Origin: a bacterium BMS3Bbin03
GTDB lineage: Bacteria; Zhuqueibacterota; JdFR-76; BMS3Abin05
Direction: 5' to 3'
NCBI GenBank assembly: GCA_002898015.1
Contig: BDTM01000035.1
Coordinates: forward strand, 42,401-106,400
DNA length: 64,000 nucleotides
Shown here piece after piece: positions 3,345-27,770 of this stretch (its first letter is position 1; every line of letters begins with the position of its first letter). Both the position numbers and the translations under genes were made by a program. Below the pieces are notes generated by a model. That model saw only the letters and a list, made by a program, of their open reading frames with translations, was not told the DNA's origin and searched no databases.

Positions 3345-4295
3345 ATGTCAATGAACAATGATTTGAAGTTATTTTCGGGCACTGCTAATCCCGCATTGGC
3401 CGAGCGAATTGCCGATAGTTTGAATCGCCCGCTGGAGTCTTTATCCATTCGGCGCTTTAGCGATGGTGAGATCTGGGTGAAATATGTTGAAAATATCCGT
3501 GGAACGGATGTTTTTCTCATTCAGCCCACCTGCTCGCCGGCTGAAAATATCTTGGAATTGCTGATTATGATCGATGCGGCGAAACGGGCATCCGCGCGGC
3601 GCGTGACGGCGGTTCTCCCTTATTACGGGTATGCCCGCCAGGATCGCAAAGACCAGCCGCGGGTGTCAATTTCTTCGAAACTGATGGCAAATCTAATCAC
3701 AACGGCCGGCGCGGATCGTGTCCTTACCATGGATTTGCACGCCGCCCAAATTCAGGGTTTTTTCGATATCCCGCTTGATCATCTGTATTCATCTTTTGTC
3801 TTCGTTGAATATTTCCGTAAAAAAAATATTGAAAATCTGGTGGTCGTTTCACCGGATATCGGCAGCATTAAAATGGCTCGTGCCTATTCAAAACGGTTGG
3901 GTGCCCAGTTGGCGCTGGTTGACAAGCGACGGCCCAAACAAAATGTGGCCGAGATCATGCACATTATTGGCGATGTGAAAGACAAAAACGTGCTTATTGT
4001 GGATGATATGGTGGATACGGCCGGAACTTTGGTCGGAGCGGCGGCAGCCATGAAAAAGAAAGGGGCCAGGCGTGTTTTTGCAGCCTGTACCCATGCCTTA
4101 ATGTCGGGGGATGCCGTAAAAAGGATCGATGAATCCCCCGTCGATGAAATGGTTGTGACCGATACAATTCCGGTGGCAAAAGAAAAAATGATTGGAAAAT
4201 TAAAAATATTGTCTGTGTCGTCGATTTTTGCTCAGGCAATTGAGAGAATTCATAAAGAAGAGTCTATTAGTATTTTATTTGATGTTGAAAAGTAG
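3345..4295 (+). CDS. prs: Ribose-phosphate pyrophosphokinase
   Basis: LKLFSGTANPALAERIA..., the PRPP-binding motif VLIVDDMVDTAGTL, and GYARQDRK are present. The start was set at the MSMNND Met. Confidence 0.9.
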   Translation: MSMNNDLKLFSGTANPALAERIADSLNRPLESLSIRRFSDGEIWVKYVENIRGTDVFLIQPTCSPAENILELLIMIDAAKRASARRVTAVLPYYGYARQDRKDQPRVSISSKLMANLITTAGADRVLTMDLHAAQIQGFFDIPLDHLYSSFVFVEYFRKKNIENLVVVSPDIGSIKMARAYSKRLGAQLALVDKRRPKQNVAEIMHIIGDVKDKNVLIVDDMVDTAGTLVGAAAAMKKKGARRVFAACTHALMSGDAVKRIDESPVDEMVVTDTIPVAKEKMIGKLKILSVSSIFAQAIERIHKEESISILFDVEK

Positions 4296-22229: not shown

Positions 22230-22910
22230 ATGAGAGAAGAGAAAATTTTAGTAGCTGTTGCGAATAACCTTCTCCGAACGAAAATAGCCAGAACACTCAG
22301 GGAAGTCGGATTCGGCGTGGCGGGCGCCAAGGATGGCAAAGATGTCATTGCGCGCGTGAACGAAGCCCTGCCGGTTATCTTATTCATGGATGTGGACTTA
22401 CCGGAAATTTCGGGATGGACCATCTGCAAGGAATTAAAGGATAATCGACTGACACGCCGAATTGGTATTATCTTAAGCGCGTATGAATCCGATGAGAATG
22501 ATCGCGTGAAAGGATTGGAATTAGGGGCCGATGATTTCATCGATTATCCGTTTGGAATGCGGGAAATGCTCGCCCGGGTAAAGGCTTTGTATCGCCGCAT
22601 TCGTTTGGATCGAAATCAAATCAAAGTGCGGGACATTGAAATCGATCTGGACGAGCATCGCGTTAAAAAGGCCGGCCTGCCCATTGATTTAACCTACATT
22701 CAATTTAAATTACTCTACTTGCTGGCATCACGGAGAGAAAATGTCTTCTCACGCCAGGAAATATTGGAGCGGGTCTGGGGGCATAAAATCTATGTCACCA
22801 ATCGAACCGTGGACGTTCACATAAAACGGCTGCGTGAAAAATTAGGCGAAGCAAAGTACCCGTCCAAATATATCGAGACGATTCATGGTGTCGGCTATCG
22901 TTTCATGTAA
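22230..22910 (+). CDS. Atypical OmpR/PhoB-family response regulator (receiver-like domain lacking the acidic pocket and conserved Lys, plus winged-helix DNA-binding domain)
   Basis: 226 aa. The C-terminal winged helix (RTVDVHIKRLREKLG...GVGYRF) is canonical. In the receiver domain, ILVAVANN replaces the usual ILVVDDD, and DYPF replaces (T/S)KPF. The phospho-Asp position is retained (FMDVDLP). Confidence 0.7.
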   Translation: MREEKILVAVANNLLRTKIARTLREVGFGVAGAKDGKDVIARVNEALPVILFMDVDLPEISGWTICKELKDNRLTRRIGIILSAYESDENDRVKGLELGADDFIDYPFGMREMLARVKALYRRIRLDRNQIKVRDIEIDLDEHRVKKAGLPIDLTYIQFKLLYLLASRRENVFSRQEILERVWGHKIYVTNRTVDVHIKRLREKLGEAKYPSKYIETIHGVGYRFM

Positions 22911-23170: not shown

Positions 23171-25137
23171 TTACAACTGCTTTTCCACCCATTTTCCAAG
23201 ACCGCCGGCAACAATTAATTCCTGTGCGGCGGTTCCGACGGGACCGAAAGCATATTCTTTTCCAGCAGCCGTCAAGAGGGCTTTTTTGAAATCCAATCTT
23301 GCCCGAATCCCCGTTCGGATGGTGAGTGCTTCGGTGCCAAATTGCTTTTTGAGATCCGTCACCAGCCCGGGTGCTTCGAGCACCAGAAATCCATTGTTAA
23401 TCGCATTCCGTTTGTAGGTTTCACTGAACGAACCCGCCAGTACCAGTTTTATGCCGCCGTATTTCAGCGCTGTGGCCGCCTGCTCCCGGGAACTCCCGGT
23501 GCCGAAATTAAATCCGCCGACCAGAATATCGCCTTTTTTGACAAGGGTTCGAAATTGCGGATCATAATTTTCCATGACCACGCCTGCCTGCTGCTCCGGC
23601 GTAAAATCATCGATGTAAGTGTATTTGCCGGGATAAATCCCGTCCGTATTCAGATTGTCCTGCGGGCAGAAAACCAACTCGCCTTCGATGACGTCCGGGA
23701 AACCGGGAAGAATGGCAATTTCCCGTGCGGCATGCCCGGGCCTTTCGTGATCGATGATAGATGCTTCCGGCTTCAGATCATCAAAATCACCGGGGTAATC
23801 GATTTTTCCGGCGATTGCCGAAGCGGCCACAACCGCAGGAGACGCCAGGTACGCATGCGCTTTGGGCGAGCCCATTCGCCCCTTGTAATTTCGATTGGTG
23901 GCCGAGATCCCGACTTCCCCGTCTTTCAGCAAACCTTCCCCAAGTCCGATGCAGGGGCCGCAGCCCGGCGGGAGGGGAGTGGCGCCGGCGTTTAGGAGTG
24001 TCTGCCAATCGCCGCGCCGGTCACTTTCGGCCTGTACGTCACGGGAAGCGGCCGCAATATAAAATTCGACGCGGGGAGAAATCCGCCTGCCTTTTACGAC
24101 TGCCGCCGCCTCCGCCAGATCACTCACCCGGCTGTTCACACAGGAAACGACGTAGGCCCGGTCAATTGCAACGGCCTTTCTGCGTATTTCCATAATGGGT
24201 GCGGCAATCTTGACCGTGTCCGGTCCGGACACATGCGGCTGAACGGAGTGTAAATCCAGCACAAGCTCTTTTGCGTAAAAAGCGTCTTTATCTGCAGAAA
24301 CAGGCTGGGCTTCCAACGCCTGAATGCGCGTTTCACAAATGCGCGGATGGGCGTCTTTCCAATCGGCATCGGAGGCCACGCCTTCGGGACCGCGTTCGGC
24401 GACAAAAGCGGCGCGTGCACGCAGCCACCGAATGGTTGTCGCATCGATGGGAAACACACCGGCCAGCGCACCCCATTCCGTGGTCATATTGGCAATGGTC
24501 AGGCGCTGATCAATGGCGAGGTTCCCGACACCCTCGCCCGCAAATTCAATGGCATGGTTGAGCACTTCATCGTGATTAAACAATCCCGCCAGCGTCAGGA
24601 TGACGTCCTTGCCGCTTACACCCGGACGAAGGCTTCCGGTGAGAACCACTTTTGCCACAGGCGGAACCTGCCACCACGTTCGGCCGGTTGCCCAGATTGC
24701 CGCCGCATCCGTACGCACGACCGGCGTTCCCAAACAACCCAGCCCCCCGTACATATTCGAATGACTGTCCGAAGCCACCACCAGAGTGCCCGGCCAGGCG
24801 TAGCCCTCCTCCACCATTATTTGATGGCCAATGCCTCTGCCTGCCGGATAAAAATCGCTGCCCATTTCCGCGGCAAACGCTTCGATTTTAGCGTATTTTC
24901 GCCGGTTCTTTTCGCTTTTGTCCTGTATGTTATGATCCAGTGCAAAGACCACCTGCCGGGGGTCCGCCAGTTTTTTCGCGCCGATCGCATGAAATTTCGG
25001 AATCACAGCGCCGGTATTGTCGTGCGTCATGACGTAAGCCGGCCGAATCGATAAGAAATCGCCGCTGTGAACAAGCGTGTCTTTGTCCAGCCCGACGGCA
25101 AAACGCCCGGCAATTTTTTCAATCAAGGTTTGGCTCA
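23171..25137 (-). CDS. Aconitase-family hydro-lyase with fused large (LeuC-like) and small (LeuD-like) domains
   Basis: About 655 aa from the internal Met MSQTLIEKIAGRF. The N-terminal part is LeuC-like (MTHDNTGAV..., Fe-S ligand region GPCIGLGEG...). The C-terminal part is LeuD-like (GGFNFGTGSSREQAATAL). The upstream 49 codons of the longer ORF look non-coding. Confidence 0.65.
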
Positions 25138-25344
25138 TGAAATCGGTCTCCTCTAAAATCTTTTTGATCCTGAATGAAATTTCCGCGAAGATTTGCGCGG
25201 TGAACGCGCACAAAATCCAATGCGGAATTTCGACAGGCATAAATTCATATCGGTTCAATTTAAAACATAAAATGCAAAAAATCAAAAAGAAAAAGCCGTT
25301 AATCCTGCGAATGATTTCTGTTGCTTTTCAGGGGGCGATTCATT

Positions 25345-25412
25345 AAATTAATTAGGAATTAGGAATTAGGAATTAGGAATTAGGAATTAGGAATTAGGAA
25401 TTAGGAATTAGG
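25345..25412. repeat. Perfect 7-bp tandem repeat (AATTAGG) x9, a simple-sequence repeat
   Basis: Nine identical heptamers, read directly from the sequence. They end 9 nt before the GGGAGGG Shine-Dalgarno site of the acetyltransferase gene, in the divergent intergenic region. Confidence 0.95.
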
Positions 25413-25421
25413 GAGGGTGTT

Positions 25422-26006
25422 GTGGAGGAAGCTGTTTATATTCATCCGAAAGCGCTTGTTGAAACCGATACAATTGGCGCACGCACACGCGTCTGGGCTT
25501 TTGCTCATGTGATGAAGGGCGCCGAGATTGGCAGCGACTGCAATATTTGTGATCATTCCTTTGTGGAATCGACGGTCAAAATTGGGAATCTTGTGACGGT
25601 CAAAAACGGTGTGGCCATCTGGGAGAAAGTCACGGTGGAGGACGGGGTGTTTTTGGGGCCGTACTGTGTGTTTACAAATGACATGAATCCGCGTGCCGAG
25701 GTCAAGAAGGGGCCTGCAGGTCTCATTCCCACCCGGATTTGCAGAGGGGCCTCCATTGGTGCCAATGCCACTATCGTGTGCGGCATCACCATTGGCCGAT
25801 ATGCTTTTATCGGGGCGGGGGCGGTGGTGACGAAGGATGTCCCGGACTTTGCGATGGTTTACGGAAATCCGGCCGGAATTCACGGTTATATGTGCGCGTG
25901 TGGCGAGAAAATAGAAACCTTCGGCAAACCCTGTCCGAAGTGCGGACGGATTTACAAAAAAGATGGGGAGAAGGTTGTTTGTGCAGAGGGGTGTCAAGCG
26001 AAATGA
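25422..26006 (+). CDS. Hexapeptide-repeat (left-handed beta-helix) acyl/acetyltransferase with a C-terminal Cys-rich zinc-ribbon tail
   Basis: GTG start 4 nt after GGGAGGG. Hexapeptide repeats are visible (IGSDCNICDHSFV, IGNLVTVKNGVAI, IGANATIVCGITIG, IGAGAVV). The tail is CACGEK...CPKCG...CAEGC. Confidence 0.7.
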   Translation: MEEAVYIHPKALVETDTIGARTRVWAFAHVMKGAEIGSDCNICDHSFVESTVKIGNLVTVKNGVAIWEKVTVEDGVFLGPYCVFTNDMNPRAEVKKGPAGLIPTRICRGASIGANATIVCGITIGRYAFIGAGAVVTKDVPDFAMVYGNPAGIHGYMCACGEKIETFGKPCPKCGRIYKKDGEKVVCAEGCQAK

Positions 26007-26100
26007 TGACTGGGCAAATGCCGTGGAAAACAAATTTTAGCGGCTGCATGAGGCAAACAGTCACAGTGCAGAACGCGATGCAGATCGGGGCTGCGGGAAG

Positions 26101-26598
26101 ATGAAAACGGTGCGGTCGCTCGCGTTGGGCGGTATTCTTGCGGCTCTTTACGCGGCGCTGACAATTTTGTTTGCTCCGATTAGTTACGGCCCTTTACAGG
26201 TGCGGGTTTCGGAAGCGCTCACCGTGCTGCCGTTTTTAACACCGGTGGCGATTCCGGGGCTTGCCGTCGGCGCCCTGCTGGCCAATATTTTTGGCGGATT
26301 TGGCCCCTGGGATATTATCGGAGGGAGCTTTTTAACCTTAATCGCCGCTTATGTAACCCGCCTGACGGCCAAAACGGGGAAACCCTGGCTGGCTCCGGTT
26401 CCGCCGATTCTGATCAATGCTTTTGGGGTAAGCGCTTATTTGCAATTTTTGGTAACGGGCTTTCAACCCGGGATTAAAACCTATTTCTATTTTGTAGTCA
26501 CCATCGGCCTGGGAGAATTGATTGCGTGTTTCGGGCTCGGATATCCGCTGCTGCGCTTTTTGATGAAGAAGAAATTGTTTGTTAAAAATAATGCGTGA
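26101..26598 (+). CDS. QueT-like small membrane transporter (queuosine-precursor transporter family)
   Basis: 165 aa with 5-6 transmembrane helices and Gly-rich helices. It resembles the QueT/ECF-S-like family. Low certainty. Confidence 0.45.
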   Translation: MKTVRSLALGGILAALYAALTILFAPISYGPLQVRVSEALTVLPFLTPVAIPGLAVGALLANIFGGFGPWDIIGGSFLTLIAAYVTRLTAKTGKPWLAPVPPILINAFGVSAYLQFLVTGFQPGIKTYFYFVVTIGLGELIACFGLGYPLLRFLMKKKLFVKNNA

Positions 26599-26687
26599 AT
26601 CCCCTGTCCCGGGAGCGGTCATTCAGGATTTTTGAAGCGGATGAGCCTATTGTCAGAAATAATCTCATACAAAATTTTAAGGTCACT

Positions 26688-27770
26688 ATGACAAAAACAA
26701 AGCACACTTTTGTAGATCGACGGGATTTTCTCAGGAAAAGCTTCGTGGGGATGGCATCCGTTCCGCTTTTATCACTCCGCACTTCGGAGAAGAATCATTT
26801 CTCAAAAAGCCGGCCGTTGATAAAACCACCGCGATTGCAGAACGGGGACACCATTGCACTGGTCACACCTGCCAGCGGACCGTTTGAGTCCAGCACGATT
26901 TGGAAAACACGCGTTCGCCTGCAAAATCTTGGCTTTCGTGTGAAACTGGGAAAACACATTTCCGAGAATTACGGGTATCTCGCCGGATCGGACCGGGATC
27001 GGGCCGAAGACTTACACACGATGTTTAAAGATTCTTCCGTTCGTGCGATTGTGGCACTGCGCGGCGGCTATGGCTCCGGGCGTTTGCTGAACCATCTGGA
27101 TTTTGAGCTGATTCGGAACCACCCCAAAATACTCATCGGCTACAGTGACATTACATCGCTCCTGCTGATGGTTTACAAGCTTTCCGGACTGGTGGTTTTC
27201 CACGGACCGGTGGGTGTTTCCGATTTTACCGATTATACACAGAAATATTTCCGGATGATGCTTTCATCAACAAAAGCGGCCGGGCCTATTGATTTTCCGG
27301 AGCCGGAGGATCCCCTCCTGCCGGCGAACCAAACCTGGCCCATTCATGGGGGACGAGCCGCCGGCCGAGTGGTAGGCGGCAATCTGACCCTGGTTTGCGC
27401 CAGTCTGGGAACGCCGTATGAAATCGAAACAAAGGGAAAACTTCTTTTCCTGGAAGATACTGAAGAAGAACCCTATTCCCTTGACCGCATGTTTACACAA
27501 TTGGATAACGCCGGGAAACTGGACGAAGCGGCGGCGATTGTTCTGGGGCACTGTGAAAAGTGCGGCCCCCGTGATTTTAAGCCCGGGTTCGATCGTACAT
27601 TAAGCGTGGAAGAGGTGTACCGCGATCGTCTGGGGCATCTTAAAAAGCCGATTTTAGCGGATCTTCCCATCGGCCATCTCCACGATAAAATCACCGTCCC
27701 TCTGGGAATCCGGGCCGCGGTAGATGCCGATAAACGGCAATTTATTTTTGAAGAAGCGGCGGTCTCCTGA
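26688..27770 (+). CDS. LD-carboxypeptidase (peptidase S66, LdcA/MccF family) with a twin-arginine (Tat) signal
   Basis: The Tat motif is DRRDFLRKSFVGMASVPLL. The S66 catalytic region is GDTIALVTPASG...GYSDITSLLL (nucleophile Ser), and a conserved C-terminal His region is present. The start was set at MTKTKHT. Confidence 0.7.
   Translation: MTKTKHTFVDRRDFLRKSFVGMASVPLLSLRTSEKNHFSKSRPLIKPPRLQNGDTIALVTPASGPFESSTIWKTRVRLQNLGFRVKLGKHISENYGYLAGSDRDRAEDLHTMFKDSSVRAIVALRGGYGSGRLLNHLDFELIRNHPKILIGYSDITSLLLMVYKLSGLVVFHGPVGVSDFTDYTQKYFRMMLSSTKAAGPIDFPEPEDPLLPANQTWPIHGGRAAGRVVGGNLTLVCASLGTPYEIETKGKLLFLEDTEEEPYSLDRMFTQLDNAGKLDEAAAIVLGHCEKCGPRDFKPGFDRTLSVEEVYRDRLGHLKKPILADLPIGHLHDKITVPLGIRAAVDADKRQFIFEEAAVS

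Follow-up and report, generated by a model that had tools for sequence, protein, structure and literature searches.

A hypervariable AATTAGG heptanucleotide array in the predicted 5' leader of an acetyltransferase-queT operon of 'bacterium BMS3Abin05'

A perfect heptanucleotide repeat stands close before the start codon of an acetyltransferase gene in the window (the whole stretch of DNA analysed, 64 kb in length). It raises the question whether the number of units varies in nature and, if so, what a change of number would alter. To our knowledge, microsatellite-driven variation of expression is documented almost entirely in host-adapted pathogens. The organism considered here, the unclassified 'bacterium BMS3Abin05', is of another kind. 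The BMS3A metagenome was obtained from massive sulfide deposits beneath the seafloor of the Southern Mariana Trough, from their deep zone at the Archaean site (PMC11427306). The organism is free-living there (PMC11427306), in a setting without the host immunity by which contingency loci are classically explained. A literature search for the organism BMS3Abin05 returned no description.

Structure and natural variation of the array

The array consists of nine perfect units (Tandem Repeats Finder: period 7, 9.0 copies, 100% matches, no indels; Table 1). It is the sole strong tandem repeat in the 64 kb, the second-best repeat scoring 48 against 126, and no further tandem AATTAGG pair occurs in the window. 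A two-unit AATTAGG pattern (≤2 mismatches) has nine matches in the window, eight of them inside the array; in dinucleotide-preserving shuffles (n = 100) the mean is 0.84 matches, and 0/100 reached nine. The preliminary description had reported a perfect (AATTAGG)x9 repeat starting at 25345. The repeat and the rest of its description stand; the start does not, since five flank bases of TAAATT had been included and the array runs from 25350.

Table 1. Features of the locus, in window coordinates.
Feature	Coordinates	Strand	Evidence and remarks
Homoaconitase-type gene, divergent	23171..25138	-	TIGR00139 E=1e-255, above curated cut-off; start codon 212 nt from array
Candidate -35 hexamer TTGCTT, acetyltransferase-queT	25321..25326	+	Invariant TTGnTTTT in three species
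Candidate -10 hexamer TAAATT	25344..25349	+	Three-species alignment; inside invariant 10-mer ATTAAATTAA
(AATTAGG)x9 array	25350..25412	+	Tandem Repeats Finder score 126, 100% identity; predicted bulk of 5' untranslated leader
Shine-Dalgarno GGAGG	25412..25416	+	5 nt before start codon; first G is final array base
Left-handed beta-helix nucleotide-sugar N-acetyltransferase homologue (WlbB/FdtC/QdtC-like), 194 aa, GTG start	25422..26006	+	Pfam Hexapep 5.9e-22
QueT, queuosine-precursor ECF transporter S component	26101..26598	+	PF06177 1.8e-44

The array is housed in a 283-bp intergenic region between the divergent homoaconitase-type gene and the hexapeptide acyltransferase gene, and its 3' end is 9 nt from the GTG of the latter. 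Each unit contains a plus-strand TAG and a minus-strand TAA. Three units therefore place a stop in all six frames, and the array cannot be coding. An 89-codon ORF (25077-25346, plus strand) ends 3 nt before the array; it was judged spurious because it begins within the homoaconitase gene, antisense to it, runs across the conserved promoter motif, and has an intergenic part that is conserved only in patches in sister species. A telomere-like (TTAGG)n repeat was rejected. The resemblance, pointed out in the preliminary description, is superficial, the period being 7 and not 5 and the array being internal to contigs of 31, 96 and 233 kb.

Alleles were surveyed in contigs encoding exactly the same 194-aa protein (ten contigs, eight assemblies, three assemblers). 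The array recurs in these 10 independently assembled contigs from three different assemblers and is thus not an assembly artefact. The alleles are metagenomic consensus sequences, not clones, and the variation is between assemblies. Seven perfect units are present in L001, L002 and L005 (the last being NCBI MAG GCA_002898095.1 'bacterium BMS3Abin05'), eight in L004, and nine in L003, equal to the window. In L010 the array is 126 nt long (at least 18 units), a length that equals k-1 of the k127 assembly and is to be read as a lower bound or possibly as an assembly effect. Interrupted alleles (g = AATTAGG, a = AATTAAG) are gagaggg (L006) and at least gggagaggg (L009). They have the 3' part agaggg in common and differ by pure units added 5', as expected for slippage in the uninterrupted part. 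Logan contigs L007 and L008 break off within the array and say nothing about copy number. The k127 contig L009 starts inside the array at a unit boundary, which is read as the behaviour of a de Bruijn graph where two alleles diverge; the breaks of k127 contigs at the array (L009, L010) are a hint of coexisting alleles within one sample.

Between the window and the other contigs, ~6.5 kb of flank holds 14-35 substitutions (99.5-99.8% identity), so few that the alleles belong to one species-level population. A G/T SNP at -97 occurs with seven or nine units in all four combinations (G9 in the window, G7 in L001, T9 in L003, T7 in L002), and several copy numbers are found on each of the right-flank haplotypes TT and GC (+760/+763). 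Copy number is thus uncoupled from the flanking SNPs, which points to recurrent length change or recombination. All alleles (11/11) keep at least seven units, and none has collapsed. The array is confirmed as a hypermutable, slippage-type microsatellite that is hypervariable in nature. Slippage had been proposed from the outset, together with a comparison of copy number among related strains; that comparison gave 7, 8, 9 and at least 18 units, and interrupted alleles, on near-identical flanks.

Further alleles were sought by other routes. A junction pattern had no matches in JGI metagenomes, an exact look-up of the homoaconitase sequence gave only the two already known contigs and no new alleles, and a look-up of the exact QueT sequence of the window gave no record. 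The locus shows three features of a contingency locus: a long perfect repeat of short units, a copy number varying among near-identical genomes, and a site where length could alter expression, here between a -10-like hexamer and the Shine-Dalgarno (SD).

Promoter motif, leader and neighbouring genes

The closest non-identical orthologues compared were L131 (82% identity, same divergent homoaconitase gene) and L134 (83% identity). No heptamer array was found upstream of the orthologues in L131, L134, L135/136 and L137/138. The upstream alignment of the window, L131 and L134 has an invariant TTGnTTTT, then 17 nt, then TAAATT; ten consecutive columns are invariant in the three species (ATTAAATTAA, window 25342-25351). 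TTGCTT-N17-TAAATT is a sigma-70-type pair with ideal spacing, and nothing else in the intergenic region is conserved across the three species. From this conservation, TTGnTT-N17-TAAATT would act as the acetyltransferase-queT promoter. The L131 counterpart of this motif precedes a leader without repeats, roughly 60 nt long, that ends in a AGGAGGGT ribosome-binding site in the same position and a TTG start. The two closest sister species have no array, yet motif, SD and a similar leader length are kept.

The array begins at the base right after TAAATT. In standard sigma-70 geometry the transcription start lies 5-9 nt after the -10 element, and the predicted start is accordingly placed at ~25355-25358, in the last bases of unit 1 or the first of unit 2. 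A sigma-70 consensus scan gave no promoter-like site within or after the array, and none on the minus strand of the intergenic region for the homoaconitase gene. The 9 nt between array and GTG are too few for a promoter to fit downstream, so the array should lie inside the transcript, and we infer that it is transcribed as the 5' leader. The -35/-10 spacer is non-repetitive and is no part of the array, and alleles whose sequence covers it show no difference in it; slippage therefore leaves the -35/-10 spacing unchanged. What slippage alters is leader length only, not the SD-to-start spacing. Leader length is ~51 nt with seven units, ~65 nt with nine, and at least ~128 nt with at least 18.

The palindrome TTAA-A-TTAA is contained in ATTAAATTAA (25342-25351, and in the L131 and L134 equivalents). 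By its symmetry it could be a site for a dimeric regulator, besides the -10 element. An OmpR-family response regulator gene (22230-22910) lies 2.4 kb from ATTAAATTAA. In L131 a short GGGAAT GGGAAT duplication (3960-3975) is found within the -35/-10 spacer, upstream of the orthologous acetyltransferase gene. The region is thus prone to small tandem duplications even without a long array.

Array RNA is unstructured at seven to nine units by folding prediction, with a minimum free energy (MFE) of 0.0 (7 units), -0.9 kcal/mol (9) and -6.0 (18). The DNA hairpin potential of the array is predicted to be zero on either strand. The predicted unpaired probability is constant from 1 to 18 units, at 0.27 for the SD and 0.37 for the start codon. 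Each unit provides an A/U-rich stretch, a weak SD-like AGGA and a UAG, and no AUG, GUG or UUG. With two weak start codons (GTG in the window, TTG in L131), the ribosome-binding region is probably of great weight for initiation. Roughly every second long ORF of the window has a recognisable SD. An Rfam scan of 25100-26200 gave no preQ1 riboswitch or other relevant family, even at E≤10; for want of an Rfam match, a riboswitch, or any other known RNA, was rejected both for the leader and for the stretch ahead of queT.

The acetyltransferase is akin to sugar N-acetyltransferases, as first described, and the likeness holds at the level of the family. The solved structures matched are WlbB 3MQG (E=4.4e-47, residues 6-166), WxcM-like FdtD 4MZU (2.7e-43) and QdtC 3FS8 (1.6e-19). 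The match to the NeuD/PglB/VioB subfamily (2.4e-24) is below the curated cut-off. Database names are FdtC- or WbpD-type N-acetyltransferase. The N-terminus, MEEAVYIHPK, matches MDKTVFIHPK in the orthologue. A C-terminal Cys-rich tail (CACG...CPKCG...C) extends beyond the WlbB-aligned region.

The neighbours are the homoaconitase, QueT, LD-carboxypeptidase and TonB-dependent receptor genes. The divergent homoaconitase arrangement is also present in the orthologue L131. QueT is probably co-transcribed with the acetyltransferase. The two genes are linked in four lineages (the window, L131, L134 and L135/L136) and overlap in L135/L136. Variable surface glycan acetylation, the role suggested in the preliminary description, is unsupported: no glycosyltransferase, sugar-nucleotide or glycan/O-antigen cluster genes were found near the acetyltransferase, and the conserved neighbour is QueT. 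Judged by this neighbourhood, the substrate may not be a surface sugar.

The spacer between QueT and LD-carboxypeptidase (window 26599-26682) differs by ~20 substitutions and a 16-bp indel among otherwise near-identical strains. The LD-carboxypeptidase start is probably the ATG near 26688 (MTKTKHTFVDRRDFLRK, Tat-like) and not the GTG of the longest ORF at 26595, which explains the gene-caller lengths of 339-391 aa in different assemblies.

AATTAGG arrays in other genomes and viruses

An exact scan of the genome collection for (AATTAGG)3 gave at least 120 stretches (L011-L130). Bacteroidota, Opitutales, Thermoanaerobaculia/Sulfomarinibacteraceae, Patescibacteria, Chloroflexota, Clostridia, Cyanobacteria and others are among the matches listed, which comprise 134 arrays of 3-17 units. 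Many of the listed arrays are embedded in longer degenerate heptamer arrays (AGTTAGG, AATGAGG, AATTGGG, AATTACG), and in Acidobacteriota AATTAGG arrays stand beside GATTTCG arrays. Array-rich genomes are those of the Opitutales isolate e4292735 (at least 5 loci) and of Thermoanaerobaculales GMC8.metabat2.114 (at least 7 arrays). Array-rich organisms in culture include Chitinophagaceae 26-R-25, Pinibacter aurantiacus and Chryseobacterium metallicongregator. Taking genomes and phage contigs together, some have 4-8 separate arrays.

Several local arrangements were observed. In Sulfomarinibacteraceae/Thermoanaerobaculia (L016, L066, L068, L090, L108, L127) AATTAGG and GATTTCG arrays are paired across a GCCGCCCGCCC-like core. 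In Opitutales (L062, L076, L082, L084, L093, L129) the arrays lie directly 3' of a GGCGCC-N4-GGCGCC hairpin. An order of array, loop and inverted array is present in L044, L052, L064, L073, L075, L079, L083, L092, L097 and L118; a reverse-complement array after a short loop or small hairpin would form long hairpins made wholly of 7-nt units.

In viral contigs AATTAGG arrays were found in 51 stretches (L141-L191) of ~39 contigs, several of which carry 4-7 arrays. Three composition-matched control heptamers gave 10, 12 and 13, so that AATTAGG is ~4 times commoner, a factor that rests on three controls. In 81 of 131 bacterial cases (among the matches listed) and 34 of 53 viral cases, a long ORF on the sense strand terminates at the array or within it, against 33 and 15 in antisense; the resulting ~2.4-fold excess comes from a crude ORF caller that yields shadow ORFs. 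In phage contigs the next start codon is often 0-15 nt after the last unit, and judging by this distance the AGGA of the array would have to serve as the ribosome-binding site. The idea that arrays elsewhere point at start codons, as TAACTGA arrays do, was rejected: they stand mostly after gene ends, in sense orientation. The context of the window array, the leader of an operon's first gene, is not the most frequent one for AATTAGG.

No description of AATTAGG arrays was found in the literature searched, and the dimer AATTAGGAATTAGG had no match there. The over-representation and strand bias of AATTAGG across phyla are a lead, not a result. A broad proposal built on them is rather unlikely. AATTAGG arrays would be a widespread, sequence-specific, transcribed intergenic element of bacteria and phages that combines a stop in every frame with a weak ribosome-binding motif. 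At gene junctions it would end stray translation and re-recruit ribosomes, or bind a conserved RNA-binding protein in 7-nt register. The BMS3Abin05 array would be such an element in an operon leader, with copy number setting translational output.

What copy number may do, and comparison with known systems

The reading preferred here, put at about an even chance, is a leader microsatellite whose copy number tunes expression in a graded way. The array would be a slippage-prone microsatellite that arose recently inside the acetyltransferase-queT 5' leader in the 'bacterium BMS3Abin05' lineage, with unit 1 abutting the -10 element and the last unit abutting the Shine-Dalgarno. Replication slippage would add or remove 7-bp units, and the promoter hexamers, the 17-nt spacer and the SD-to-start spacing would remain untouched. 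Copy number would tune translation initiation of the operon and/or mRNA stability, possibly by ribosome standby or decoy sites or by an RNA-binding protein. The outcome would not be an ON/OFF switch. That copy number influences expression is itself something we infer; ON/OFF switching is less likely than either graded tuning or neutrality. The masking of the SD by RNA structure as the array grows was rejected, the array being unstructured; the constant accessibility of SD and start codon makes an occlusion switch unlikely. Against tuning, the simplest folding model predicts no effect of copy number, the promoter assignment draws on conservation in three species, and the two closest species are without the array, which is thus not required for the operon. 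The occurrence of a single such array in 64 kb and the free-living habitat, in which host immunity plays no part, also speak against it.

A neutral hypervariable microsatellite is a serious rival, though somewhat less likely than tuning. It would be a recent slippage expansion in a tolerant, unstructured leader, with no selected effect on expression. Such neutrality agrees with the retention of promoter motif, SD and similar leader length in the closest relatives without the array, with a predicted SD and start accessibility that is constant over copy number, and with the occurrence of a single array in 64 kb. High polymorphism is also seen in the nearby QueT/carboxypeptidase spacer, so that constraint on intergenic DNA is weak here. 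Less easily reconciled with neutrality are the absence of collapse below seven units in 11/11 alleles, the over-representation of AATTAGG against matched heptamers, and the exact filling of the -10-to-SD gap in sense orientation, like the arrays before phage-contig start codons.

Decidedly improbable is a binding platform, a widespread AATTAGG element recognised by a conserved RNA- or DNA-binding factor, with one protomer per 7-nt unit and copy number setting the occupancy. A candidate binding protein was not found, the sister species are without the array, and the contexts in other genomes (after gene ends, in inverted-array hairpins, beside GC-rich hairpins) are heterogeneous and unlike the leader position here. 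For a platform speak the presence of (AATTAGG)3 in at least 120 places in many phyla, its multiple copies in some genomes, its strand bias relative to genes and its excess over matched heptamers in viral contigs, with the three controls on which that excess is based. The UAG-N4 periodicity of the array presumably equals that of the HutP site, and one GGA per 7 nt would be reminiscent of CsrB repeats. S1, Csp or CsrA-type binders were proposed by MacGregor for the analogous TAACTGA arrays (PMC4679880).

Promoter-level phase variation, with unit number shifting the -35/-10 spacing or a UP element as the preliminary description had it and switching transcription ON or OFF, is scarcely tenable on geometry. 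In its favour, such switching typically involves a perfect non-triplet microsatellite ahead of a gene, and the copy number is variable. Against it, the sole conserved promoter-like motif lies entirely upstream of the array, the 17-nt spacer is outside it and identical where included, the 9 nt left to the start codon and the array itself hold no sigma-70 site, and the homoaconitase start codon is more than 210 nt away in a region with no minus-strand promoter-like site.

The locus joins features of interest: a long perfect heptanucleotide array, naturally variable, in an uncultured free-living sub-seafloor bacterium, exactly between a candidate promoter and a ribosome-binding site. If copy number tunes output, "rheostat" contingency loci would extend to deep-biosphere organisms and to a mechanism based on leader length. 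The cross-phylum AATTAGG pattern is the more unusual lead and could matter more than the locus itself. Over-represented, multi-copy and strand-biased, AATTAGG suggests that the unexplained TAACTGA arrays have a relative not described so far, and it offers a concrete sequence for fishing out a binding factor.

Among known systems, the hmw1A and hmw2A genes of Haemophilus influenzae have perfect arrays of a 7-bp unit (TGAAAGA, ~9-38 units) that vary between and within strains (PMC2424069, PMC2651432). Expression falls stepwise as units rise from ~15 to 28, and is graded, not ON/OFF (PMC2424069, PMC2651432). The hmw repeats are found ~70-106 bp before the gene, and it is the amount of transcript that they influence (PMC2651432, PMC2424069). 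The array described here has in common with them a heptanucleotide unit in a perfect, variable array upstream of a gene (7 to at least 18 copies), a likeness of mechanism class between an unrelated unit and an unrelated gene. It differs in ending 9 nt from the start codon and abutting the SD, in belonging to a free-living sub-seafloor host and not a pathogen, and in being known from sequence alone.

In uspA2 of Moraxella catarrhalis, AGAT repeats are located in the 5' UTR, with 6-23 copies by strain and an optimum for expression at 18, as summarised in PMC4679880, which cites Attia and Hansen 2006. Both loci have a microsatellite in a transcribed leader, a predicted one in the present case, and a strain-dependent copy number. 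The uspA2 repeat is a tetranucleotide, belongs to a pathogen surface protein and has an effect shown experimentally, whereas an effect is deduced for the AATTAGG array. The poly-G tract of M. catarrhalis uspA1 is an upstream homopolymer/SSR of the phase-variable type in the account given in PMC4679880. A slippage-prone tract upstream of a gene is common to both; tracts of the uspA1 type alter promoter geometry, whereas the AATTAGG array is outside the -35/-10 spacer, downstream of the -10 element.

Direct repeats of the TAACTGA heptamer were described by MacGregor (2015) in Beggiatoaceae, Cyanobacteria and Bacteroidetes, with a patchy distribution across phyla (PMC4679880). They are in forward orientation, a few nt before start codons, with stops in all forward frames and unstructured RNA, and a translational role was proposed (PMC4679880). 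The sets are short (2-6 units), number 169 per genome and mostly stand in place of a recognisable ribosome-binding site (PMC4679880). The AATTAGG array is likewise forward and 9 nt from the GTG, with TAG in all three forward frames and an MFE of about 0. It differs in its unit, in its length (7 to at least 18 units), in occurring once in 64 kb, and in being followed by a strong GGAGG 5 nt from the GTG, so that the canonical SD is not replaced. Population-level variation of copy number was not the subject of the TAACTGA study (PMC4679880). The class of locus, a slippage-prone repeat upstream of a gene, is already well known, and the AATTAGG array is a further case.
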